A stretch of 64,000 nt of DNA from Bdellovibrionales bacterium (lineage in GTDB: Bacteria; Bdellovibrionota; Bdellovibrionia; Bdellovibrionales; UBA1609): NCBI GenBank assembly GCA_027317865.1, contig DAHVQG010000009.1, positions 64,001 to 128,000 on the forward strand, written 5' to 3'. Position numbers and translations under genes: made by a program. Every line of letters begins with the position of its first letter. Position 1 is the first letter of the stretch. This document shows positions 46,345 through 57,141 of this stretch, piece by piece. The notes below the pieces were generated by a model that saw only the letters and a program-made list of their open reading frames with translations, ran no database searches and was not told the origin of the DNA.

Positions 46345-46634
46345 GAGCTATAATCCCGTATTGTTACGAATAGTCGCGGCTCAGGAATGGCTTCGGCTGA
46401 TCATTGAGTCTCGCTGCTCGCCAAGCTCGCGGTACCTTTCAGTCACGCAAAATGCGCGCCGTTAACTCGCGCTCACTTGCGCCAACAGTCCAAATCTTGC
46501 CATTGGGTCCGTTTCAGAACGAGACGGTATATGCAATGAACGAGCACTCCAGATTAAACACGACGGCCAGAAGTCTGGAGCGAAATGCCACGGCATTTGA
46601 GATGAGCGCAACGCTATAAGTAGCTACGATGGAG

Positions 46635-47297
46635 TTAGATTTTTGTGAAGTTGCCCTGAATCTTATCGAAAAATGTTCGAAACGCCGAACCTGGGGGCAA
46701 ATATTTGTCGACCGTGCTTTGGGCGTCAGATGATGTGAGTCGGTCGGCTTCTTTCCAGAGATCCTCAAAAATGTGTGCCGTCGAGCCGACGGCCAGAGAT
46801 GGAAAGGCACCGTCGTCCACTTCGCCGAAGGCGATGACGAGCATCCGCAAGAACAGATCTTTGAGCGCCCGTTGGTAGGTCGGTTCATGAAACCTGCCGC
46901 GCAAGTCAGTTCTCTTTTTCAGTTCGCGGGTTGAAAGAGGCGAATCCATTTCAAGCTCGTCGAGAAGAAGCCGGGCTGTTGCGCTTAAACCTATTTTTAA
47001 ATTGTGCGTCTGCTTCAGCCTTGCCAACATCGCCGTGAAGACGTCTCGCGAAAAGAAAGTGGCCCGGCCCTGATACCATTTTGAATAAACAACGTCGCGA
47101 CAATCGGAGAGCTCTTTCATGAGCGTCCACATTTTAAAGACGCGGTTGTCGCCGCCTTCGTCCCATTCCCATTTCATCTTCGTGCGGGGATGAAATTCAC
47201 TCCAGAGCGAGAGCGGCACCTTCTGATTGGCGCGCGGAAAGACCAGGAGAATGCCACGCTTGTTTATTATCTCAATCGCTTTTGCTTTATCGCCCAT
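46635..47297 (-). CDS. Winged-helix protein, AlkZ-related
   Basis: VVYSKWYQGRATFFS, PLSTRELKK, RALKDLF. Confidence 0.6.
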   Translation of the reverse strand: MGDKAKAIEIINKRGILLVFPRANQKVPLSLWSEFHPRTKMKWEWDEGGDNRVFKMWTLMKELSDCRDVVYSKWYQGRATFFSRDVFTAMLARLKQTHNLKIGLSATARLLLDELEMDSPLSTRELKKRTDLRGRFHEPTYQRALKDLFLRMLVIAFGEVDDGAFPSLAVGSTAHIFEDLWKEADRLTSSDAQSTVDKYLPPGSAFRTFFDKIQGNFTKI

Positions 47298-47422
47298 AAG
47301 ACCTCGTCGCGTAGTGAATGATCCTAAGCCGACGAAACGCCGAAATCAAATCGAGGTCGACTCGTTGAGTGAAAACTTTTAATTTTGCAAATAGCCTTCT
47401 ATAAAGAAAGTAGGAGATTATT

Positions 47423-47953
47423 TTGGAACAAGTTGAAGACCGAAAAGACATTTTGTTCAGCACTCCACGTTTAGTCTGCCGTCGCATCGACACTTTTGAC
47501 TTAGAAGCGTTGGAGCACGTCTATGGAGATGCAGAAGCCATGAAGTGGGTCGGAGATGGTCAGCCACTCACCCATGAGTTGTGCTTAAAATGGATCGACG
47601 TCACTAAAAAGAATTACATTAAACGAGGGTACGGAATGTCAGCTCTGGAACTGAAAAGCTCGAAAGAAGTGATCGGATTTTGTGGAATTGTTCATCCTGA
47701 CCAGCAAAAAAATCCTGAGATCAAATATGCATTCCTCAAAAAATATTGGGGCGTTGGTTTTGCAACGGAAGCCGTCTCAGGACTTTTAGAATATGGGTTT
47801 AATGAACTTCAACTTTCTGAAATCTTTTCGACAACATTTGAGGCGAATACACTTTCGAACAACGTACTTCGTAAAAATGGCTTTGAACAGATTGATCGTC
47901 GATCAGAAGCAGGCCTGCCAGACGTTATAATTTGGAAAATTTCACGGATTTGA
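47423..47953 (+). CDS. GNAT family (RimJ/RimL-like) acetyltransferase
   Basis: TPRL, IGFCG, YWGVGFATEA, NTLS..VLRKNGF. Confidence 0.88.
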   Translation: MEQVEDRKDILFSTPRLVCRRIDTFDLEALEHVYGDAEAMKWVGDGQPLTHELCLKWIDVTKKNYIKRGYGMSALELKSSKEVIGFCGIVHPDQQKNPEIKYAFLKKYWGVGFATEAVSGLLEYGFNELQLSEIFSTTFEANTLSNNVLRKNGFEQIDRRSEAGLPDVIIWKISRI

Positions 47954-48010
47954 ACCTCTGATTCTCCGCCCGCTGGCATCAAGAGCCTATGGTTCGTGCA
48001 AAGTATCGAC

Positions 48011-48018
48011 TGGTGCCC
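48011..48018 (+). repeat. Distal attachment-site core (TGGTGCCC)
   Basis: Identical to 56135-56142; the next 21 nt partially match the tRNA side (GCC, ACT, CG in register); GGTTC 20 nt upstream at both junctions. Confidence 0.65.
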
Positions 48019-48163
48019 GTTGCCCTACTCTAGACGAGTATTTGGTTTGGGTCGAAAGTTACCCAATCCAATGGTGGGAACCTCGCTTTAATCTGGCGGA
48101 GCTGGCAAAACGCCGCAGGATTAGCCGAGACACTCCACTTAACTCAAATACAGGAGGGTAAAC

Positions 48164-48352
48164 TTGTATCGAATTTTATTTATTTTGATGGTCCTTGCAT
48201 CCATTAAGCAATTTGGGCTCAGGCCAACCGATTTGCTTGGGTGCCATTCGCCCGCATGCGTGCAACGGGTAGAAGCGGCTACCCGTCGCGTGCTAAAGAT
48301 TGATTGGAAGCCAATTGTGGTGTTTCCTTACGCGGCGAAACGCTTCCATTAA
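48164..48352 (+). CDS. Small hypothetical protein (62 aa)
   Basis: AGGAGG RBS, TTG start, hydrophobic N-terminus, CHSPAC motif. Confidence 0.5.
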   Translation: MYRILFILMVLASIKQFGLRPTDLLGCHSPACVQRVEAATRRVLKIDWKPIVVFPYAAKRFH

Positions 48353-48453
48353 TTAATGCAACCACTGCCTAACGGTTGGCGCCATGAGCCTTTCCTTTTA
48401 GTGATCGAACCTTTATAAGTAGATTCCCTGTAATTGATTCTAGGAGCCGACAA

Positions 48454-48819
48454 GTGAATTTTTGGGAATCTTTCGGAACCGGTGTTTTAGGCAGCGTGGT
48501 CGCCTCGGTTATTATCTCAGTATTTGCGGTCCGTTTTTTAAAGCGCAGCCTGCACGATAGAATAAATGAGTTAATCAATGCTGATCAAAGCGCAAGGCGA
48601 ATTAAAGAGTCCATCGCAGGAGCCCTATCGTTTTTAGATCGCGCTCAAATTAATATACACACCCAGTTGGTAGACCCCAACATTAATAAAGCTGTCCCAA
48701 ACTGGTTCAATAGCGAAATTAATGAGATCCGCATGTCAATCAACACAGCGGCGAGCGAAGTTGATTCATTGAGAGGCAGCCTCGATACTATCGCAAGAGC
48801 CGGGAGAAAATTACAATGA
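48454..48819 (+). CDS. Hypothetical protein, one N-terminal TM plus helical domain
   Basis: AGGAG RBS, GTG start, ATGA overlap with the next gene. Confidence 0.65.
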   Translation: MNFWESFGTGVLGSVVASVIISVFAVRFLKRSLHDRINELINADQSARRIKESIAGALSFLDRAQINIHTQLVDPNINKAVPNWFNSEINEIRMSINTAASEVDSLRGSLDTIARAGRKLQ

Positions 48820-49295
48820 CAAACAATTTGAAAGACATGCTAATTCAGGGGCTAACCAAAGTTAGTCAAGAGAAACAAGCTGCCCAACAAAATGCGAGAA
48901 AATTTGCTGATGCATATCAGTCTTTAGTGGCAGAGCTTCGGGAATTTACTTCCGGGGCGCCCGTTCAAATTGCGGCGAGCAATATGACTTGGGATGTATA
49001 TGGCTCATCGATTCCGATGACACCTTTAAATTTTTTCGCTGATAATGCGGCCCAATTTGCTCTGCAACCGCAGATCCAAACGGGCGGTGCTGCACCTTCA
49101 GCCACAAGCTTTAAGCTAATGGTGACTGCAACCAGGATAGCTGAAAGTTTTCCGAGGGTAATTTATTTTAACCCGACGAATTCAACCTGGACATCAAAGG
49201 ATCCAGGAACTTTATCGGGTCTAATTGGTCAGTTTAACATTGACCCTGAGCAATTCAAAAGAGCACTGGTTTACGCGCTTACGGGCCAACAATAA
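48816..49295 (+). CDS. Hypothetical protein
   Basis: GGGAG RBS, translationally coupled to 48454..48819. Confidence 0.65.
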   Translation: MTNNLKDMLIQGLTKVSQEKQAAQQNARKFADAYQSLVAELREFTSGAPVQIAASNMTWDVYGSSIPMTPLNFFADNAAQFALQPQIQTGGAAPSATSFKLMVTATRIAESFPRVIYFNPTNSTWTSKDPGTLSGLIGQFNIDPEQFKRALVYALTGQQ

Positions 49296-49307
49296 AATTT
49301 GCGGCAA

Positions 49308-50726
49308 TCATGCAGATAGGCGCTCGTCTATAATTGCACTTATTCGTTCGACTGCACCCTTAATTGTAAGTGCCTTTTTTGGATTGAGTACAACCAGCAC
49401 CGTCTCAGACTCCGCTTTATCTCTTAACGACGAGATAATTTCGGAGTGGTTTGTAACTTCTTGTAATCGACCATCGGTACCAACCACAAAAACATTATCA
49501 TCACTTGATTTGTACATTGTGCTTTTAAGCTCAACGATCGCATAGTCGACGTCGACTTTCATCCCTTTTGCCTCAAGTTTTTCCTTAATTACTGACTCTT
49601 TTCCTTTTTCTACGCGATAATTGTGCGACACTTTTCTGCTCAAAATCGAGCTGGCAATCTCACTTGCGTACTTTAGTTTCTTATTTTGGGACTTAACCCG
49701 CGCCAAAACTGAAACGAGCGACCAAATAGAATCCTCAGTCATTTGAACGTACGCATCTAAATTGCTTTCAATGAATCTAGTTCTTGCATGTTTGTTCGGC
49801 AGTCCCTTGGCTCTTGTGAGAAGTGTCCCCATTGCAATTAGATATTCTGGAATAAATGGCTTAATTTCGCCATTCTGCCGAAGATGCTTCATTTCTTCGA
49901 CTATAAATCTGATTAGACGTTCAATCATATACTCTAAAACTTTCACTTTTCGGTGGAAGTAAATGGTTCTATTCATAAGCTGCCTTGCGATCACGTAACT
50001 TTCATAGGTTTTAACACCTTTGTAGTTCAGCCCCAGGGTCAGCGGATTTTTTGGATCATGCTTGATAACCGTGAGGGAATTGATTAGATATTGGAGGTCT
50101 ATTTTCCCAATAGCGGTGCCACTGAAGTGGGAGTCTCTCACCAAATAATCCATTCGATCGACATCGAGTTGCGACGAGACAATTTGTTTTAAAAATCTGG
50201 GCATGTCCGATGATGATTCTTTGCTAATTATATGGGAAACGGTATTAACATCTATATTTTCTGCTAGCAGCGAAGCAGAAATACTCGACTTTTTCGCCGA
50301 TATTATGGCGGCGCTCCATTCCTCATGTAGAGGGGCGTTTTTAAAACCTGTAAGATCCTTTAATACATTTTCAAAAGAATGAGAAAATGGCCCGTGACCA
50401 ACATCATGTAGAAGCGCAGCAGCAATAACCTCTTTACGATATTTTCTGATTTTGTTTTTTAGAGATCTATCGCACTCCTGCTCGATTAAATGCTCGACCA
50501 CCTGGCGCGCAAGGTAAGCAGCACCTAAACTGTGGCAAAACCGAGAATGGGTTGCCCCCGGAAAAACATAAGACGCCAATCCGAGCTGTGAAATTCGACG
50601 CAATCGCTGAAACTCGCGTGAATCGATGACCGCCTTCATCCAGGAGCGAGTCTTGTTATCGCTTCCAAAATTCATGACCTCATGCACGGGGTCATTCACA
50701 ATTATGTTAAACGCCACTTTGCCCAA
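49308..50726 (-). CDS. HD-domain phosphohydrolase, SAMHD1-like dNTP triphosphohydrolase
   Basis: DPVH, FQRLRRISQLG, HSRFCHSLG, LLHDVGHGPFSH, HE, LDVDRMDYLVRD, IYFH. Confidence 0.9.
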   Translation of the reverse strand: MGKVAFNIIVNDPVHEVMNFGSDNKTRSWMKAVIDSREFQRLRRISQLGLASYVFPGATHSRFCHSLGAAYLARQVVEHLIEQECDRSLKNKIRKYRKEVIAAALLHDVGHGPFSHSFENVLKDLTGFKNAPLHEEWSAAIISAKKSSISASLLAENIDVNTVSHIISKESSSDMPRFLKQIVSSQLDVDRMDYLVRDSHFSGTAIGKIDLQYLINSLTVIKHDPKNPLTLGLNYKGVKTYESYVIARQLMNRTIYFHRKVKVLEYMIERLIRFIVEEMKHLRQNGEIKPFIPEYLIAMGTLLTRAKGLPNKHARTRFIESNLDAYVQMTEDSIWSLVSVLARVKSQNKKLKYASEIASSILSRKVSHNYRVEKGKESVIKEKLEAKGMKVDVDYAIVELKSTMYKSSDDNVFVVGTDGRLQEVTNHSEIISSLRDKAESETVLVVLNPKKALTIKGAVERISAIIDERLSA

Positions 50727-50971
50727 GTATCCTCCGATGCTGCCGTTTGATCGGCTGATTTAGAGCTTATATGTATGGACTTGGGTCTATCCTGATGATT
50801 GATACTAACCGAAAACTGTATATGCGGCCGGGTCCTTGACATGTGGTCCGAGCGTGAAGTACAGCTGTTCAATCAGCTTTGATTGGCTGAAATACCGAGA
50901 CCCTTGACTGGGCCTTTAATGCTTGAGTGCAACGACAAATGTGCGAGGACGCACATCGGAAAGGATGACAT

Positions 50972-51523
50972 ATGTCTAACGACAACATTAACAATATTGA
51001 TTCTCTATTAGTAAATCTTGAAAACGATTCCCAGAAACTAACCGACAAGTTGACGGTGATTTCCGAGAAAATCAAAAGGGTCGAAAACGCCCTTCAGACC
51101 CTTAACATCGGCATAGACGTTTCAATGGAATTCCAAGCCCAGCCATTATCTTCAGACGAAAGAACTGCGGTAACGGAGCGTATTGTTCCCGATTGGCAGT
51201 TCATCAATGCCTACGCGAAAGACGGGATCCGATGGGCAAGAAACGAGCAATCCGGCAAGTTTCGCTTGTTGTACACGCGGACAATTTACGAAGACCGGAT
51301 ATCACTCGGATACGGTGACGCCCCAAAAGGGACCTATTCAACCTCAGCGTATGGCTGCGCTCAGTACCCCGACGGAGTCACAGTTACTAAGCCTTTGATA
51401 GAATGTTCAATTGACGTTCGACTACGCCTGTGGCCGGAACTCCCGGCTTTTCTAGCTAAGCTTCATGGCGCTATCGAAAAGATCATTTCCGTCGAAAAAA
51501 TCTCCATTAACGGAGGTTTTTAA
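50972..51523 (+). CDS. Hypothetical protein with N-terminal coiled coil
   Basis: AAGGA RBS; stop abuts the ATG of the nuclease gene. Confidence 0.65.
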   Translation: MSNDNINNIDSLLVNLENDSQKLTDKLTVISEKIKRVENALQTLNIGIDVSMEFQAQPLSSDERTAVTERIVPDWQFINAYAKDGIRWARNEQSGKFRLLYTRTIYEDRISLGYGDAPKGTYSTSAYGCAQYPDGVTVTKPLIECSIDVRLRLWPELPAFLAKLHGAIEKIISVEKISINGGF

Positions 51524-52429
51524 ATGGTTGACTCAGAATTTTTGGATCTGATCTATGACTCTGCCCTCAAATCATTCTGGCGAATTAAGGCTCTAAAACG
51601 TTTTTTATCGTCAATTGGGATATCTGACGCATTCCTAACTGGTAACGGCGAGAAAGAACGGAAGCGCGATGTTTTGGACCGTGTTTTTGAAAAACTGCGC
51701 AAACACCCTAAAGGGCCAGCAGTATTTGAAGCGATGGCAACTAGTTTATCAGAGCGCACTGAATTTCCTGACTTGCAAAATTGGGAAGATTCCGATGACA
51801 AAATAAGGGAGGCTACATTAGCCAAGCTTAAACTGCGGAAGTACCTGAAAAGGCGAGAAGATAAAAGAAAGGATGAAAAGGAACAAGCAGCTGCACGGGA
51901 GCGAGATGCAAAACGTCGTGAAGAAATCGCGGCCCGGAATAACTCGCTTAGTAAATTGGAACATCGATTTAATGAACTAGCCAACAAAATTGGTACTGCT
52001 GCCGGAGGATACGAATTTCAAGAATGGTTTTATGACCTGCTCGATTTTTACGAGATTCAGTGCCGCCGTCCATATACGGTAGACGGGCGTCAAATTGACG
52101 GCTCCGTAACTGTAAGTGGCACTACCTATCTTGTTGAATTAAAATTTACTCAAGCGCAAATCGGCGCGACGGACGTGGACAGTTTGTTTAGAAAAGTTGA
52201 AACAAAAGCAGACAATACTATGGGGATTTTGGTTTCAGTTGCAGGGTACAGCTCAGTTGCAGTTAAAGAAGCGTCAAGAGCAAAAACTGTTTTGTTACTA
52301 TTAGATCATGGACACCTCATCGCGGCCCTACGCGGAACAGTTGATCTAGTGGACGTAATCGAGCGTGTTCGTCGACATGCCTCACAAACGGGCGAAGCAT
52401 TTTTACCAATACAAGAATTTGGAGGGTGA
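51524..52429 (+). CDS. Mrr-like PD-(D/E)xK restriction endonuclease domain protein
   Basis: GYEFQE, QIDG...YLVELKF, GILVSVAGYS; N-terminal helical domain and charged coiled coil. Confidence 0.75.
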   Translation: MVDSEFLDLIYDSALKSFWRIKALKRFLSSIGISDAFLTGNGEKERKRDVLDRVFEKLRKHPKGPAVFEAMATSLSERTEFPDLQNWEDSDDKIREATLAKLKLRKYLKRREDKRKDEKEQAAARERDAKRREEIAARNNSLSKLEHRFNELANKIGTAAGGYEFQEWFYDLLDFYEIQCRRPYTVDGRQIDGSVTVSGTTYLVELKFTQAQIGATDVDSLFRKVETKADNTMGILVSVAGYSSVAVKEASRAKTVLLLLDHGHLIAALRGTVDLVDVIERVRRHASQTGEAFLPIQEFGG

Positions 52430-52756
52430 TATAATGGCGGTACCTCGCCGGTTTGTGAAAATCCAATATCTTTTCTGTTGATGGTTTCCTCTTAGCAGTA
52501 ATGAAATAAATCTTAACTTCTGTTAAGACGCAAAAGCTGCTATAATTCGAATAAATAGTTATTGTTTTTCTGCTTGCATCGAGTCAGCGATTAATTTGAC
52601 GATAGCTTGGTTTCTTGCTACTAATATATTGTCTCCTACTACTTTTTTACTGCTAGTTTTCGACTAATTAATTGAGCAATTGTTTCTCTGCCCGGCTTTG
52701 GCCTTAGTGCCTCCGCTTATCCGCTATTCCTAAAAACAAAAATAAAGGAGGTTCTT

Positions 52757-53263
52757 TTGGATAAAGAATCAACGGATAGGTTTACCCTCACGTTATGGGG
52801 GTCGTTTGTCGGCTCGTGGCTACTCGTCTTTCTCATGATCATTAACGGTGCCGCAAGCTCTAGCAATCCCGCTTATGTGATCATCTCGGTAATACGCTGG
52901 ATGTTCACCGCTGGCGTCGGCGTTTGGTGCCTCGTTTGGGTGCTTTGCAAGTGGTTCCCCGAACACTTGGAGGCGTCAGCTAAAGAGGTGGAACGCAACA
53001 AGCAAGAGTACGAAAGCTTGATCAACCGGGAGGTCGAGCGACGGCTACAAGCAATCCGCGCAAGCGAGTGGAAAGCAAAAGAAGCCGAAAGGAGGCAAAA
53101 AGAACGCAGAGAAGCGCAAGAACGCTATCGGAGGGAACTCGAAGAAAAATGGCGAAAAGAGTTTGAGAAAAAACTCGAAGCTGAAATTCACGCGGTTCGT
53201 ACCGCAAGCGACGCCACCCAAGAAGCCGTGAGCGACTTCGTCGATGACGGAGGTGTTGCATGA
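52757..53263 (+). CDS. Membrane protein (2 TM) with charged coiled-coil tail
   Basis: AAGGAGG RBS, TTG start, ATGA overlap with the relaxase. Confidence 0.7.
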   Translation: MDKESTDRFTLTLWGSFVGSWLLVFLMIINGAASSSNPAYVIISVIRWMFTAGVGVWCLVWVLCKWFPEHLEASAKEVERNKQEYESLINREVERRLQAIRASEWKAKEAERRQKERREAQERYRRELEEKWRKEFEKKLEAEIHAVRTASDATQEAVSDFVDDGGVA

Positions 53264-54009
53264 TTGTAACTCAAAGAGACAAAGCGCTGTTTGAAAAACT
53301 CCATAGCTATGCGGTTATGACGACTCGTCAGGTGGCAAATACGGTCTTCCCAGGGATTGAACTCACAACGACTCTTCGTCGCCTACGCAAACTCGAAAGA
53401 GATAACTTTATAAAACGAAATACCGGGCTATCGACTTATGAGCACTCATGGACGCTCACCGAAAAGGGCGCAAAGCTTGTTTCAGATCGTCCACCAAGAT
53501 GGCAACAATCGCGCTATTTACTCGAACACGATACTAAGCTCACGGCTTTACGACTCGCACTCGAAAGCGCCGGCGTTGCTCAATCGTGGATTCCGGAGCA
53601 TGAAATCCGCTTCAAGGTTGCCTCAAGGCACGGACTCGAAGTTGCAAAAGATAAATTGATTCCTGATGGGATCATGGGCGTTGATTGGCAAGGATCGAAA
53701 GAGTCGATTGCGATTGAAGTGGAGCTTCACGGCAAAAACTCGCGTCGGTATTTCCGCAACTTTCACCAGTACAAATACAAGCAAAACATACTTGGCGTGT
53801 GGTATCTGACCCCAACTCCTACTCTTGCGCGGACAATCGAAAAGCTATGGATCAGAGAAGTCGGCATGAATCGAAAACCGTTTTTCTACTGGTCTTTGAT
53901 CGATGAAGTGATTGAAAAACCGCTCGAAGCAATCGTTCGCTCAGGAAAAGATCGCAATGCCTTACCGCTTATTTGGCGACCTGGAGGTGCGCTTGCAAAA
54001 CTAAACTAG
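53260..54009 (+). CDS. Replication-relaxation (Replic_Relax) family protein
   Basis: N-terminal wHTH (TQRD..., RRLRKL, LTEKG), LEHD, then IPDG...IAIEVEL..K..RY. Confidence 0.8.
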   Translation: MIVTQRDKALFEKLHSYAVMTTRQVANTVFPGIELTTTLRRLRKLERDNFIKRNTGLSTYEHSWTLTEKGAKLVSDRPPRWQQSRYLLEHDTKLTALRLALESAGVAQSWIPEHEIRFKVASRHGLEVAKDKLIPDGIMGVDWQGSKESIAIEVELHGKNSRRYFRNFHQYKYKQNILGVWYLTPTPTLARTIEKLWIREVGMNRKPFFYWSLIDEVIEKPLEAIVRSGKDRNALPLIWRPGGALAKLN

Positions 54010-54104
54010 GTTGCTCATACCCCTGCTCACCCACTGAGCAACTTTGTCGCTTGTTTTTTGCTTTGAAGTTTACAATTAACTGCTGAATTTCGTTAATCAA
54101 CTTG

Positions 54105-54209
54105 CGCACCCGCATTGTGAGATAAAAACCGCCTGCACCCGTGACCACCCTCCCCCTACAACGGTGAAGGGTGGTCACGGCTTACGGCGGTAAAAACAAT
54201 GCGGGTGCG
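54105..54209. repeat. Nested long inverted repeat (candidate oriT/single-strand origin)
   Basis: Perfect arms of 14 bp (54105-18/54196-209), 6 bp (54128-33/54186-91) and 13 bp (54139-51/54168-80). Confidence 0.75.
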
Positions 54210-54266
54210 AAACAGAAAACAATTAAAGAAGAGGTTTAAGTAACAGAATTAACAAAGAGGTAAAGC

Positions 54267-54452
54267 ATGAGAAAGAAATGGGAATGTACCCAAATCAATA
54301 TCTGCTCTACTGCTATATCTGCTGAAGAATATAATCTACTAGTTGATGAATGGGCCCAGGCGGTCTATCGTCATTTTTGCCAGCTTTCGTCAGCTAAAAT
54401 CGAGGCTCCTGAAACTCAAATGCCATCCGTGGCAGAAAGTGCAGGTGCCTAA
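54267..54452 (+). CDS. Small hypothetical protein directly upstream of the recombinase
   Basis: GAGG RBS; its TAA abuts the recombinase ATG. Confidence 0.55.
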   Translation: MRKKWECTQINICSTAISAEEYNLLVDEWAQAVYRHFCQLSSAKIEAPETQMPSVAESAGA

Positions 54453-56156
54453 ATGAACACAAATAAAAATAAGCAATTTAAGATTGGGCTTTATATTCGG
54501 GTCAGTACCGAAGAACAGGCCGAAAATCCTGAAGGCTCAATTCGCAATCAAGAAGATCGTCTTCGAAGTGCTGTCGAATATAAAAATCGCTATGGTAGTT
54601 TCGGTAAGATCCAAGGCGTTTATGTCGATGCCGGCATCTCAGCAAAAGACATGAAGCGACCCCAGCTTCAAGAACTACTTAAAGCCGTTCGAGCCCAAGA
54701 GATTGATCTCGTCATGGTGACAGAACTTTCGCGTCTTTCGCGTAACACCCGCGACTTTATCGACATGTGGGACATGATGCGCGATAATGGCTGTCAGTTT
54801 ACAAGTCTTCGCGAAGACTTTGACACGACAAATGCGGCCGGCGAACTTGTGCTTTTTCAGCTCATGAACTTGGCACAATTTGAAAGACGCCAAACATCTG
54901 AGCGCGTTCAAGCCAACATGCTCGCCCGCGCAGCCCGCGGTCTTTATAACGGCGGCATCGTGCCGGTCGGCTACAAACTGATACCTGACAAGCCTGGTTA
55001 CCTTGAGATCGATGAGCTAATGGCGGCAATGGTGCGCGAAGCTTATGCGGCTTACTTACGCGAAGGGTGCCTGTCGAAGGCAGCGCTTTGGCTCAATGAG
55101 CAAGGTTATCAACTAAAAAAGCAAACCCAAGGCGGTGGCAATTATAAACGCTGCGGTCATTTTACGACTGACAACCTTCAAGGAATGCTTCGCCTCAAAG
55201 CTTACGTCGGCATTAAAACCTACACGCAAAAAGGTGAAACCAAAGAAGTGAAAGCGGTTTGGCCGCCGATCATTGACGTTCACACCTTTAAACGAGTCAA
55301 TAAACAACTCGATTTAAATAAGGCGAATTACAAGCCTTATAAAGAAGGTCGCTTCCCTTATCTTTTATCAGGCATGGTCCACTGCAAAACTTGTAAAAGC
55401 ATGATGCCTGGCAAATCTGCGACCGGTTCGAGAGGCAAAATCGGTTACCATGAGCACAGTTGGAACACCAAACGAGACTCAACTCTAAAAACAAAGCAAT
55501 TTCAATGTAACCCGATTCGCATCCCTTCAAGAAAACTCGATCCGCTCGTCTGGGAGAAAACCGTGGCTTTCGTTACCGATCCGATATTTATGGGCCAGGT
55601 TCTTGAAAAAGTACGAAAGCATCACGGCAATAATCCGCGGCAAAAAGATCGCGAGCGCATCAACGCTAAAATTCGAAGTATTCAAACCCAGGTCGATGCA
55701 CTGGCCGAACGACTCTCGGAGTTACCTAAGAACGTGTCGGCTGGACCGATCTATAAACAAATGGCAAAGCTTCAAGAAGTTATGGCCGAGTATGAGAATC
55801 AGCTTAAACAATTACAAAACGGTGGCAGAACGACTTACGACCGAATCGTGGGGCTTGATACCCTCGAATCGTTTGCTCGCTACTACAAAAACTTCGTGAT
55901 GAATAACACAACGTTTATTCACCGAAAGGAACTCGTTAAAAAGTTTATTAGCCGGGTTGAGGTAAGTGAGAATTCCGTCGACATCCATTTCATCGCTGAT
56001 AAAGATTACTACAGGCATGAGCTCGGCCTCCTTGCATCGCGCAAGGGGGCTCGAGGCCCTTATGGGCGGCCTCAGTTTGTGCCGTTAGAGCTTTCTGAAA
56101 ATTCTGTGCGTGACGGTTCTTCTACCTTGACTCTTGGTGCCCCGGGCCGGACTTGA
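54453..56156 (+). CDS. Large serine recombinase (integrase)
   Basis: YIRVSTEEQ catalytic Ser, D.GISA...RP.LQ, SRLSRN, AQFER, recombinase domain, CKTC zinc ribbon, coiled coil. Confidence 0.93.
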   Translation: MNTNKNKQFKIGLYIRVSTEEQAENPEGSIRNQEDRLRSAVEYKNRYGSFGKIQGVYVDAGISAKDMKRPQLQELLKAVRAQEIDLVMVTELSRLSRNTRDFIDMWDMMRDNGCQFTSLREDFDTTNAAGELVLFQLMNLAQFERRQTSERVQANMLARAARGLYNGGIVPVGYKLIPDKPGYLEIDELMAAMVREAYAAYLREGCLSKAALWLNEQGYQLKKQTQGGGNYKRCGHFTTDNLQGMLRLKAYVGIKTYTQKGETKEVKAVWPPIIDVHTFKRVNKQLDLNKANYKPYKEGRFPYLLSGMVHCKTCKSMMPGKSATGSRGKIGYHEHSWNTKRDSTLKTKQFQCNPIRIPSRKLDPLVWEKTVAFVTDPIFMGQVLEKVRKHHGNNPRQKDRERINAKIRSIQTQVDALAERLSELPKNVSAGPIYKQMAKLQEVMAEYENQLKQLQNGGRTTYDRIVGLDTLESFARYYKNFVMNNTTFIHRKELVKKFISRVEVSENSVDIHFIADKDYYRHELGLLASRKGARGPYGRPQFVPLELSENSVRDGSSTLTLGAPGRT

Positions 56157-56227
56157 ACCGGCACGCCCGTTATACACGAAGCCCAGGATTTTAAGTCCTG
56201 TGCGTCTACCAATTTCGCCACCGGGGC
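56135..56227 (-). tRNA. tRNA-Leu (anticodon TAA)
   Basis: GCCCCGG/CCGGGGC acceptor stem, encoded CCA, TGGTAGAC D-loop, CTTAAAA anticodon loop, long variable arm, GGTTCAAGTCC T-arm. Confidence 0.95.
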
Positions 56228-56436
56228 CAAAGCGCGCGCGGCTCGTGCGTATTAAAGCAACTTGCGTCAGGCGCGAAAAAAATCGATATAATCCCAAACA
56301 ATCGCGGCTTGATTGGCATAAGACAACCCTCGACTCATCGTTTAATCTACAGTTTATTCAGTTGAACGAACCGCCTCCCCGACCCGATCATCAAAACGAG
56401 GAGGCCGATAGCGGAATTAGTCCTATCGCGTGCTTC

Positions 56437-57141
56437 ATGAGCGATTTCTTTTGGGCCTTTAAAAAAACCAACAAATACTTCTGGCCAGTTCTGAAACGAA
56501 GCTGGGTTTGGTTATTAGGCGTAACAATTTGCAGTGAAGCCATGTACCAGTATTTCACTTACATTGCACAAAATTATCGTCCGCCTTCCGGAGTGAATAT
56601 TCCCGCGACCTTGGGCGATTTGGTTGCTTCACTCCTTGAGTTTATAGTCTTGACGATGCTCATCCCACAGCGAGTGATGGAGCTCGATCGTAATGACCCA
56701 CCTCAAAGTTTTATTGGGTTTGCGAAGAAATACATCAAACCACTTACAGCTGAGAGTCTGCGCGCGCTAGCCATGACGATATTGTGGACGCTCGTGTTTA
56801 TTGTGCCCGGTATTTTTAAATATGTTCGCTATTTTTTGGTGGGATATGTCGTCGTGGCTGATCCGGAATACGAAGCCGGTAACGTCGATGCGCTGAAGGA
56901 GTCTAACCGGTTAGTCAAAGGTATCACGATCGAACTGTTCATATTCGTTGTCATTTTGATATTTCTTGACAGTTGGCAATCAACTCTGCGAGAACACGAC
57001 CCCTTCACCACGGCTCCTGTGGTCGCTGCGCTGGCTACTGTTGTATTTTTCTTTTTGAATTATTATGCCAACGTCTTTCTTTTCATGCTATATCAGTCGC
57101 GCAAGTTGCGCTTGGGTCATTCGGTGACCGCCGAATCTTGA
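56437..57141 (+). CDS. Hypothetical multi-pass membrane protein (DUF975-like)
   Basis: LWTLVFIVPGI...DALKESNRLVKG motif; start placed at MSDFF, clear of the tRNA. Confidence 0.7.
   Translation: MSDFFWAFKKTNKYFWPVLKRSWVWLLGVTICSEAMYQYFTYIAQNYRPPSGVNIPATLGDLVASLLEFIVLTMLIPQRVMELDRNDPPQSFIGFAKKYIKPLTAESLRALAMTILWTLVFIVPGIFKYVRYFLVGYVVVADPEYEAGNVDALKESNRLVKGITIELFIFVVILIFLDSWQSTLREHDPFTTAPVVAALATVVFFFLNYYANVFLFMLYQSRKLRLGHSVTAES

Follow-up and report, generated by a model that had tools for sequence, protein, structure and literature searches.

The window analysed here is a stretch of 64,000 nucleotides (nt) of contig DAHVQG010000009.1 (positions 64,001 to 128,000) from a Bdellovibrionales bacterium, whose assembly, GCA_027317865.1, amounts to 2.65 Mb in 42 contigs. 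Its segment 48011-56142 is an 8.1-kb integrative island that a serine recombinase put into the last bases of a tRNA-Leu(taa) gene. We regard the following explanation of the whole as the best one and as probable: the attachment site attP lies within the open reading frame (ORF) of the integrase, so that integration would cut the gene and separate its 3' end, hereafter the tail, from the rest, and excision would rejoin the two pieces. The features on which this explanation depends are the following.

47991..48010, plus strand: left arm of attL, with GGTTC at a P-type distance, 20 nt before the core; in the tail frame it codes GSCKVST
48011..48018, plus strand: core copy at attL, TGGTGCCC, with the predicted crossover dinucleotide GC at 48015-48016
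48012..48161, plus strand: tail coding segment, 49 codons and a stop, of a short-tail subgroup without the helix-turn-helix (HTH) part
54453..56156, plus strand: large serine recombinase, integrated form of 567 amino acids (aa), with Resolvase and Recombinase domains and a match to the phrog_95 integrase family (3e-95)
56115..56139, plus strand: predicted P half-site, 25 bp long and internal to the integrase ORF; GGTTC occupies 56115-56119 and TTGAC 56127-56131
56135..56142, plus strand: core copy at attR, TGGTGCCC, antisense of the tRNA 3' end ...GGGCACCA
56140-56159: B' half-site in tRNA-Leu(taa), with the T-loop GAACC at 56155-56159 and the TGA of the integrase within this motif
56135..56227, minus strand: tRNA-Leu(taa), intact (60.2 bits), its 3' end restored by the island end

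The preliminary description of this DNA had the recombinase frame running through the core and ending LGA-PGRT on a TGA in the antisense of tRNA-Leu, a 49-codon open frame from 48012 with its stop at 48159-48161, and no ATG, GTG or TTG in the 27 open codons between the stop at 47928-47930 and the core. All of these coordinates were confirmed. Indeed, the integrase ends ...LGAPGRT, with the TGA at 56154-56156 inside the tRNA gene, and the final four residues and the stop codon of the 567-aa form come from tRNA-derived sequence. A joint at the core would keep residues 1-563 (through GA), replace PGRT and add 47 new residues, giving 610 aa, and the predicted passage from 567 to about 610 aa was therefore correct (563 + 47).

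The enzyme belongs to the large serine recombinases by its domains. The catalytic Resolvase domain (PF00239) was found by Pfam at residues 13-163 with an E value of 2.9e-34, and the Recombinase domain (PF07508) with an E value of 1.1e-12 and 48.5 bits for a cut-off of 21.1. The zinc ribbon (Zn_ribbon_recom, PF13408) gave a weak match in the window protein, 22.1 bits for a cut-off of 25.3; among relatives, P0003 passes (26.1 bits), P0004 stands at the cut-off (25.3), and P0023 carries the domain according to precomputed annotations. The closest solved relatives by sequence were the N-terminal domain of TP901-1 (6.4e-17) and SPbeta SprA (5e-5).

Taken by themselves, the features of the window stay within chance. 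The 8-mer TGGTGCCC occurs on the plus strand at 48011-48018 and 56135-56142 and once more on the minus strand at 1296, that is, three times for 1.09 expected, and 11 of 100 shuffles reached three. Open frames of at least 49 codons start from 20-22% of window positions (6.6% in shuffles). We looked for a longer direct repeat or a displaced tRNA piece at the island ends, and nothing above 8 bp was found. The significance therefore comes from related elements.

Tail segments and integrases of related elements

A phmmer search with the 49-aa tail against 1.84 billion representative proteins returned 19 matches, 18 of which were short ORFs of 63-186 aa; the 19th and weakest (P0022, 481 aa, E 8e-4, residues 363-389) lies outside the 18 compared. 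The N-termini of the short ORFs were unrelated, being chromosomal sequence, and conservation began at G-A-R, the residues coded by the core. A hidden Markov model of the tail had matches in 33 of 101 related genomes. A scan with one genome per species gave 17 loci, all in metagenome-assembled genomes of Bdellovibrionales, Pseudobdellovibrionaceae or Oligoflexia, and a metagenome scan gave 15 tail loci, all of the attL type.

The preliminary description had proposed to collect homologous elements and to ask whether their tail frame is conserved at the protein level. It is, over 30 junctions. The ratio of nonsynonymous to synonymous substitution (dN/dS, pooled Nei-Gojobori, codons 10-37 of 29 tails) was 0.24 in the tail frame, as against 0.86 and 1.74 in the shifted frames. 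The proportions of synonymous (pS) and nonsynonymous (pN) differences were 0.48 and 0.16 over these codons, and 0.82 and 0.28 over codons 38-70 of 21 long tails; arginine codons of the tail interchange between CGC and AGG. At 14 of the 30 distal junctions there was no in-frame ATG, GTG or TTG from the upstream stop to the core, and nine of these 14 also had no start in tail codons 1-16. The segment, although selected at the protein level, is thus often untranslatable where it lies. Structured RNA in the tail region was considered as well and rejected: Rfam found only the tRNA in 47000-57000, and the codon pattern showed protein coding.

Most tails extend over about 90 residues. The short-tail subgroup, made of the window, P0001, L034 and L036, ends some 10 residues beyond the 37 conserved ones at its start. 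The core at the 30 junctions was TGGTGCCC in 26 cases, and the others were single-base variants, namely TGGTACCC in L022, TGGCGCCC in L026 and L029, and TAGTGCCC in L062.

On the integrase side, 16 rows were compared. Eleven of them (10 distinct genes, L031 being the same as L041) carried a core of the tRNA-Leu type with its T at codon position 3, and all 10 distinct genes were open through the core in the same phase, with a stop a few codons into the tRNA. Two rows read likewise into tRNA-Arg(cct) or tRNA-Met, and the three remaining ones were truncated or frameshifted. In 11 cases (G000, G024, G006:C2, G068:C92, G080:C33, G028:C17, G090:C52, G040:C22, G053:C3, G041:C38 and L031) tail and integrase shared strand and contig, the tail lying 3-28 kb upstream. 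The core residues covaried between integrase end and tail: FGA and GAR for tRNA-Leu, FGT and GTR in G006:C2, NGS and NGS for tRNA-Met, IGD and IGE for tRNA-Arg.

One-piece forms were also found. P0023 is a 631-aa protein with all three domains of large serine recombinases and a long tail, and is 36% identical to the window integrase. P0024 (376 aa) is a C-terminal piece in which integrase and tail are contiguous, P0001 (153 aa) another one, whose tail is 80% identical to that of the window and ends at the same point, and P0003 (349 aa) is 75% identical to the C-terminus of the window integrase and carries a variant tail. An attP inside the integrase ORF, with integration changing the C-terminus, was thus found across the 10 distinct genes and the one-piece forms. 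The proposal that the island is bounded by the two cores and that the C-terminus is swapped held up on four counts: the tail is conserved from the core onwards, junctions lack starts, the frame runs through the core, and one-piece ORFs exist. As judged from these sequence comparisons, the tail is a real part of a full-length protein, and the C-terminus swap on excision is well supported.

Three further observations concern related integrases. For the integrases at tRNA-Arg(cct) and tRNA-Met, matching tails lie 6 kb and 28 kb off, and another homologue (45% identity) has a tmRNA gene no more than 2 kb away; the loci of these integrases are L052 in G090:C52, L055/L056 in G053:C3 and L042 in G041:C20. 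In L054 (G036:C72:2000-6500) a tail adjoins an integrase (35% identity) in a different frame, owing either to a frameshift in a one-piece gene or to a faulty assembly.

The layout of the attachment sites was read from the same set. All 10 integrase ends carried two motifs, [GA]GTTC at -20..-16 and TTGAC at -8..-4 relative to the core T, and 28 of 30 tails carried GAACC at +26..+30. The GGTTC of the integrase ends (10/10) thus falls 25 bp left of the inferred centre and the GAACC of the tails (28/30) 25 bp right of it. On the tRNA side the T-loop GAACC stands at +21..+25, that is, 20 bp from the centre. We infer a symmetric attP of 50 bp whose centre is the GC in TGGT-GC-CC, the half-site on the tRNA side being shorter by 5 bp; the predicted crossover GC, placed by the GGTTC/GAACC symmetry in the family, falls at 48015-48016 and 56139-56140. 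Half-sites of 25 bp on the P side and an outer B motif 5 bp inwards were thus found here. The same is described for an A118-type integrase, with 25-bp attP half-sites and the outer attB motif shifted 5 bp inward (PMC3783163).

This site takes up some 17 codons of the variable linker that connects the last hairpin of the zinc ribbon with the conserved strand of the tail. Tail codons 1-9 overlap the P' half-site at 48016-48040, and the GAACC motif, when translated, gives the E-E-P that is conserved in the tail. The stop codon of the integrated form sits in the T-loop motif.

Predicted docking of the tail and its possible role

Folded alone, a long tail showed four helices at residues 28-86, the first three forming an HTH (pLDDT, the predicted local confidence, 73). 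No name could be given to this fold: Foldseek against the PDB had no match at E <= 0.001, and PHROGs gave a weak match to a D5-like regulator. The tail was also compared with known families of recombination directionality factors (RDFs) and excisionases, and no similarity emerged: Pfam, PHROGs and NCBIfam had no match beyond weak HTH ones and Foldseek returned only generic HTH domains.

We then modelled the integrase of the G024 element in complex with its own tail. The interface score ipSAE was 0.68, 0.66 and 0.68, and the best of three controls scored 0.00. Of 157 solved complexes, 116 came up to this mark, as did 2 of 215 mismatched pairs; these figures apply to our model approximately, since it was run with alignments of our own. 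The docking runs shared at least 67% of contacts, with a partner pLDDT of at least 73. In the model, tail residues 10-21 lie antiparallel to the last hairpin after the coiled coil (integrase residues 511-524) and also touch residues 359-374, 388-392 and 469-470, at the coiled-coil base. The short-tail subgroup retains exactly this docking segment.

These data suggest the following sequence of events. The attP would lie inside the integrase ORF, in the variable linker after the zinc-ribbon/coiled-coil domain. On integration, the chromosomal integrase would end after four tRNA-coded residues, and its natural 3' end, the tail, would be stranded at the far junction without a promoter-proximal partner. 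On excision (attL x attR) the two pieces would rejoin into the 610-aa enzyme, in which the tail strand (about residues 10-21) would add to the last beta-hairpin of the zinc ribbon, beside the coiled-coil base. In most relatives, though not in the window copy, a small HTH domain would follow this strand.

The region of the zinc ribbon and the coiled-coil base is where directionality factors act on serine integrases. Activating mutations in the coiled coil of the phiC31 integrase allow excision without the factor, according to PMC7337939. The preliminary description saw in the swap a switch for directionality, stability or activity, which is a good hypothesis, towards which only the docking model points. 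We lean towards the full-length form being the integrating one. That the truncated form differs in activity or directionality we put slightly below an even chance. A more specific version would make the tail a built-in directionality device: in the full-length enzyme of the circle, the tail strand would be clamped on the zinc ribbon and would hold the coiled coil for attP x attB only; integration would remove the tail, and the freer coiled coil would permit attL x attR recombination almost or wholly unaided by a separate RDF. We consider such a clamp rather unlikely. Were it to exist, the amino-acid sequence of the recombinase would itself show which state the element is in.

State of this copy and alternative explanations

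Unoccupied tRNA-Leu(taa) sites in G005:C160, G007, G002, G033 and G001 had flanks that were unrelated right up to the core. The same-genus site G006:C3 was tried as a clean empty site and rejected, as the flank proved to be the decayed C-terminal end of a P0023-type integrase. The last 20 bp of that decayed C-terminus are those of window 47991-48010, and an identical 20 bp ends a decayed integrase C-terminus beside tRNA-Leu genes in G005 and G006 (L018, L019). For this reason, the left arm of attL in the window is taken to be a fossil P-type arm, the old 3' end of another integrase gene and not an original flank of the tRNA. Fossil integrase 3' ends of this kind (P arms 20-30 bp long, preceded in some cases by as many as about 130 decayed codons) adjoin several tRNA-Leu genes; the sites are window 47991-48010, L017, L018, L019 and L047:15858-15887. 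New elements seem to have inserted beside old ones, giving attP-like hybrid junctions. Such junctions are unexpected under the usual rule that serine integrases join attP and attB only.

Several points weigh against the explanation given above. As regards the family, 16 of the 30 junctions do have an in-frame upstream start, so that separate translation is possible there. In-frame stops were present in 27 of the 60 tail matches listed in relatives, and arrays of fossil tails occur. Some one-piece ORFs may sit in tandem arrays and not in circles. This is clearly so for L047, whose 636-aa integrase continues into the tail of another element, itself decayed: a tRNA-Leu(tag) and a fossil P arm follow after 4 kb, which marks a tandem array and not a free circle. 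Among the 15 metagenome loci, from a scan that left viral contigs aside, neither a one-piece integrase-tail form nor an episomal contig was found. In the tail folded alone, residues 1-27 had low confidence (pLDDT about 50-63), the HTH part had weak generic matches only (Foldseek E 0.2-1, Pfam HTH_3 E 0.029), and the docking model covers the G024 pair, not the window proteins. As regards this copy, its P' arm (48036-48040) reads GAGTA where 28 of 30 tails have GAACC, only L065 deviating as well. Its tail is atypical in stopping after 49 codons, without the HTH part, and its left arm is atypical too, a fossil P-type arm being found in six of the 30 attL junctions. Lastly, neither a circle junction nor an empty-site joint for this genome was present in the assembled contigs of runs X1-X4, from which no conclusion on excision follows.

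The altered P' arm and the loss of the HTH part together suggest that this copy may be stranded. The family design could then be real and the window island a fossil that no longer excises, with no swap here. We hold this to be a serious possibility, if not the one that we would back. The fossil left arm, which makes attL an attP-like site, speaks in its favour, as do the missing joints, the frequency of decay in place seen in the interrupted tail matches, and the fossil P arms that adjoin tRNAs in L017, L019 and L047. Against it, the integrase ORF shows no interruption and retains the RVST catalytic motif region and its domains (the zinc ribbon by a weak match), and the tail ORF is likewise intact. 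The latter reads DEY/EEY where other tails have EEP, and since this variant is common to P0001 at 80% identity, it argues for a maintained variant. Moreover, in a second sample of the same study (run X2), contigs cover 46500-48181, bridging attL, and 52400-56200, with the integrase and backbone module, whereas the stretch at 48.3-52.4 kb, where the cargo lies, is covered by none. The pattern hints at an island variant whose ends are unchanged and whose cargo differs, and such a combination suggests recent turnover. Altogether, the chances that this copy is still able to excise appear to us evenly balanced.

As a second possibility, the tail might be a small regulatory gene of the island in its own right (for an HTH excisionase or repressor, say), whose 5' end happens to overlap attP, the frame relation having no function. 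The junction ORFs are indeed called as proteins of 63-186 aa, more than half of the junctions offer an upstream start as noted above, and the three-helix HTH of most tails could act alone. We nevertheless find it improbable. Start codons show no conservation, since 14 of the 30 junctions lack one upstream of the core and nine are without one as far as codon 16, and the N-termini that such proteins would have are unrelated chromosomal sequence. In the 10 distinct genes of the tRNA-Leu type, the excised form has no stop between integrase and tail, so that the fusion would be made whatever else happens. In addition, the short-tail subgroup, including the window, kept the docking segment and lost the HTH, and the model docks precisely that segment on the integrase.

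That the 8-bp repeat and the open frame are a coincidence, the true boundary lying elsewhere, is scarcely credible: the three copies for 1.09 expected, the commonness of 49-codon open frames and the lack of a cleanly empty same-genus site at G006:C3 would permit it, but conservation in the family begins at this core in 30 of 30 junctions, tails and integrases are paired on 11 contigs, the core covaries between junctions, and a contig of run X2 bridges the same attL.

Island contents and comparison with known systems

Between the tail and the integrase, the island carries a small ORF, a cargo block and a set of backbone genes.

48164..48352, plus strand: small membrane-like ORF of 62 aa after the tail, with homologues in L014/L036 and L034 and no Pfam or PADLOC match
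48454..52429: cargo block of five ORFs, itemised in the next four lines
48454-48819 and 48816-49295: two ORFs without matches
49308-50726, minus strand: HD-domain protein of 472 aa, dGTPase-like
50972-51523: ORF of 183 aa
51524-52429: Mrr_cat nuclease-domain protein of 301 aa, PADLOC PDC-S02-like (E 4e-6)
52757..53263, plus strand: backbone membrane and coiled-coil protein of 168 aa, conserved in the G024 element
53260..54009, plus strand: backbone Replic_Relax / MobC-like protein of 249 aa (PF13814, 1.6e-8; MobC subfamily below cut-off), with a homologue in G024
54267..54452, plus strand: small conserved ORF of 61 aa that abuts the integrase start, with a 65-aa homologue at the same place in G024 and no family match

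All family matches of the cargo were under the curated cut-offs except Pfam HD, HD_assoc_2 and Mrr_cat. The backbone set (membrane and coiled-coil protein, Replic_Relax/MobC-like protein and 61-65-aa ORF) is common to window 52757-54452 and L015:10469-12138, and the 61-aa ORF at 54267..54452 is a candidate directionality factor. The cargo of the G024 element (L015:3319-9739) comprises a PIN-like protein and McrBC, together with a CBASS-like pair formed by a SMODS nucleotidyltransferase and a Cap15-type effector. In both elements the cargo looks like defence genes. In the short-tail subgroup, a hydrophobic small ORF takes the place of the HTH part, a few bases past the tail stop and behind a Shine-Dalgarno-like AGGAGG (48164-48352 in the window, L014:3157-3354, and after 5604 in L034).

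Outside the island, the left flank (46635-47953) holds an AlkZ-related gene and a GNAT acetyltransferase gene. The former has 91% identical DNA in G006:C3, 11.5 kb from the tRNA of that genome. The 3' end of the latter overlaps, in another frame, a weak similarity to the integrase C-terminus found by tblastn of P0001. The left flank may itself be remnant island DNA.

If the explanation is right, a C-terminus lost on integration and regained on excision would be a new coupling of enzyme form to element state, and tRNA genes would be added to the targets of serine integrases. The family also shows how a 50-bp DNA site fits in a coding linker. Since the elements carry defence genes, they would offer a route for the exchange of immunity genes among predatory bacteria and their kin.

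The preliminary description recognised no characterised large serine recombinase of this kind that targets a tRNA gene, and this agrees with the literature searched and with the Islander paper (PMC4383910), according to which tRNA genes are not among the known targets of serine-family integrases. Papers of 2014 and 2017 state that serine integrases do not use tRNA genes, or put their targets inside protein genes. In Durrant 2022 (PMC10083194), neither the term tRNA nor such a case appears in the main text; the supplementary tables may bear on the point. Likewise, no serine integrase with attP inside its own gene was described in the literature searched, which was covered mostly by title and opening of the abstract, subscription journals and supplements lying outside.

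With A118/LI, phiC31, Bxb1, TP901-1 and SPbeta SprA, the window enzyme has in common the Resolvase and Recombinase domains, with a zinc ribbon weakly indicated in addition. In these characterised large serine recombinases attP is known to stand beside the gene, not in it, and directionality is set via a separate RDF protein; to our knowledge, direction control of serine integrases always needs such a second protein. These enzymes are valued as tools because their direction is simply controlled. Their targets usually lie inside protein genes, according to a review (PMC5704250), whereas the target of the window family is a tRNA 3' end, with the tRNA staying intact and the enzyme C-terminus changing with the state of the element. 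The 25-bp P halves are those of the A118 type (PMC3783163), with the tRNA-side half 5 bp shorter in the window family.

Engineered integrase-RDF fusions likewise have a C-terminal add-on that touches the zinc-ribbon/coiled-coil region, and a SprA-RDF fusion has been solved (9dxd). Such fusions can set the direction of a serine integrase. They are man-made and fixed, whereas the window fusion would be natural and reversible. The add-on of the window would be present only in the excised state, the reverse of the requirement for an RDF-like part.

The islands of the Islander definition resemble this one in the restored tRNA 3' end, the integrase beside the tRNA, the accessory cargo, and the repeated insertion and decay at the same tRNA. 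They are defined with tyrosine integrases. In the window we found the intact tRNA and a displaced fragment, of 8 bp and thus far shorter than usual, and the sole recombinase aboard the island is of the serine family; a shared segment of only 8 bp is as expected for a serine recombinase.

In the mycobacteriophages BPs and Brujita, the part of the repressor that is removed is a degradation tag. There too, an attP in a coding gene makes the C-terminus of a protein depend on integration, according to PMC4557955; in these phages, however, it is the repressor gene that is split, and a tyrosine recombinase acts as the integrase.

The integration target of phage Mx8 is a tRNA gene. Its IntP/IntX is a close likeness, with attP within the integrase coding sequence and integration creating a new 3' end and an altered C-terminus, and the prophage integrase is stated to have changed properties along with its altered C-terminus (review PMC6070905, citing Tojo 1996 and Magrini 1999). 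Mx8 differs in being served by a tyrosine recombinase, with another chemistry and site architecture, whereas the window enzyme is a large serine recombinase; the window system would thus work alike without being a member of that kind. In the window family, the site lies in the linker after the zinc ribbon and the part cut off is the docking strand, with or without the HTH, as known here from sequence and model. The principle is known from tyrosine integrases (Mx8 and integration-dependent immunity).

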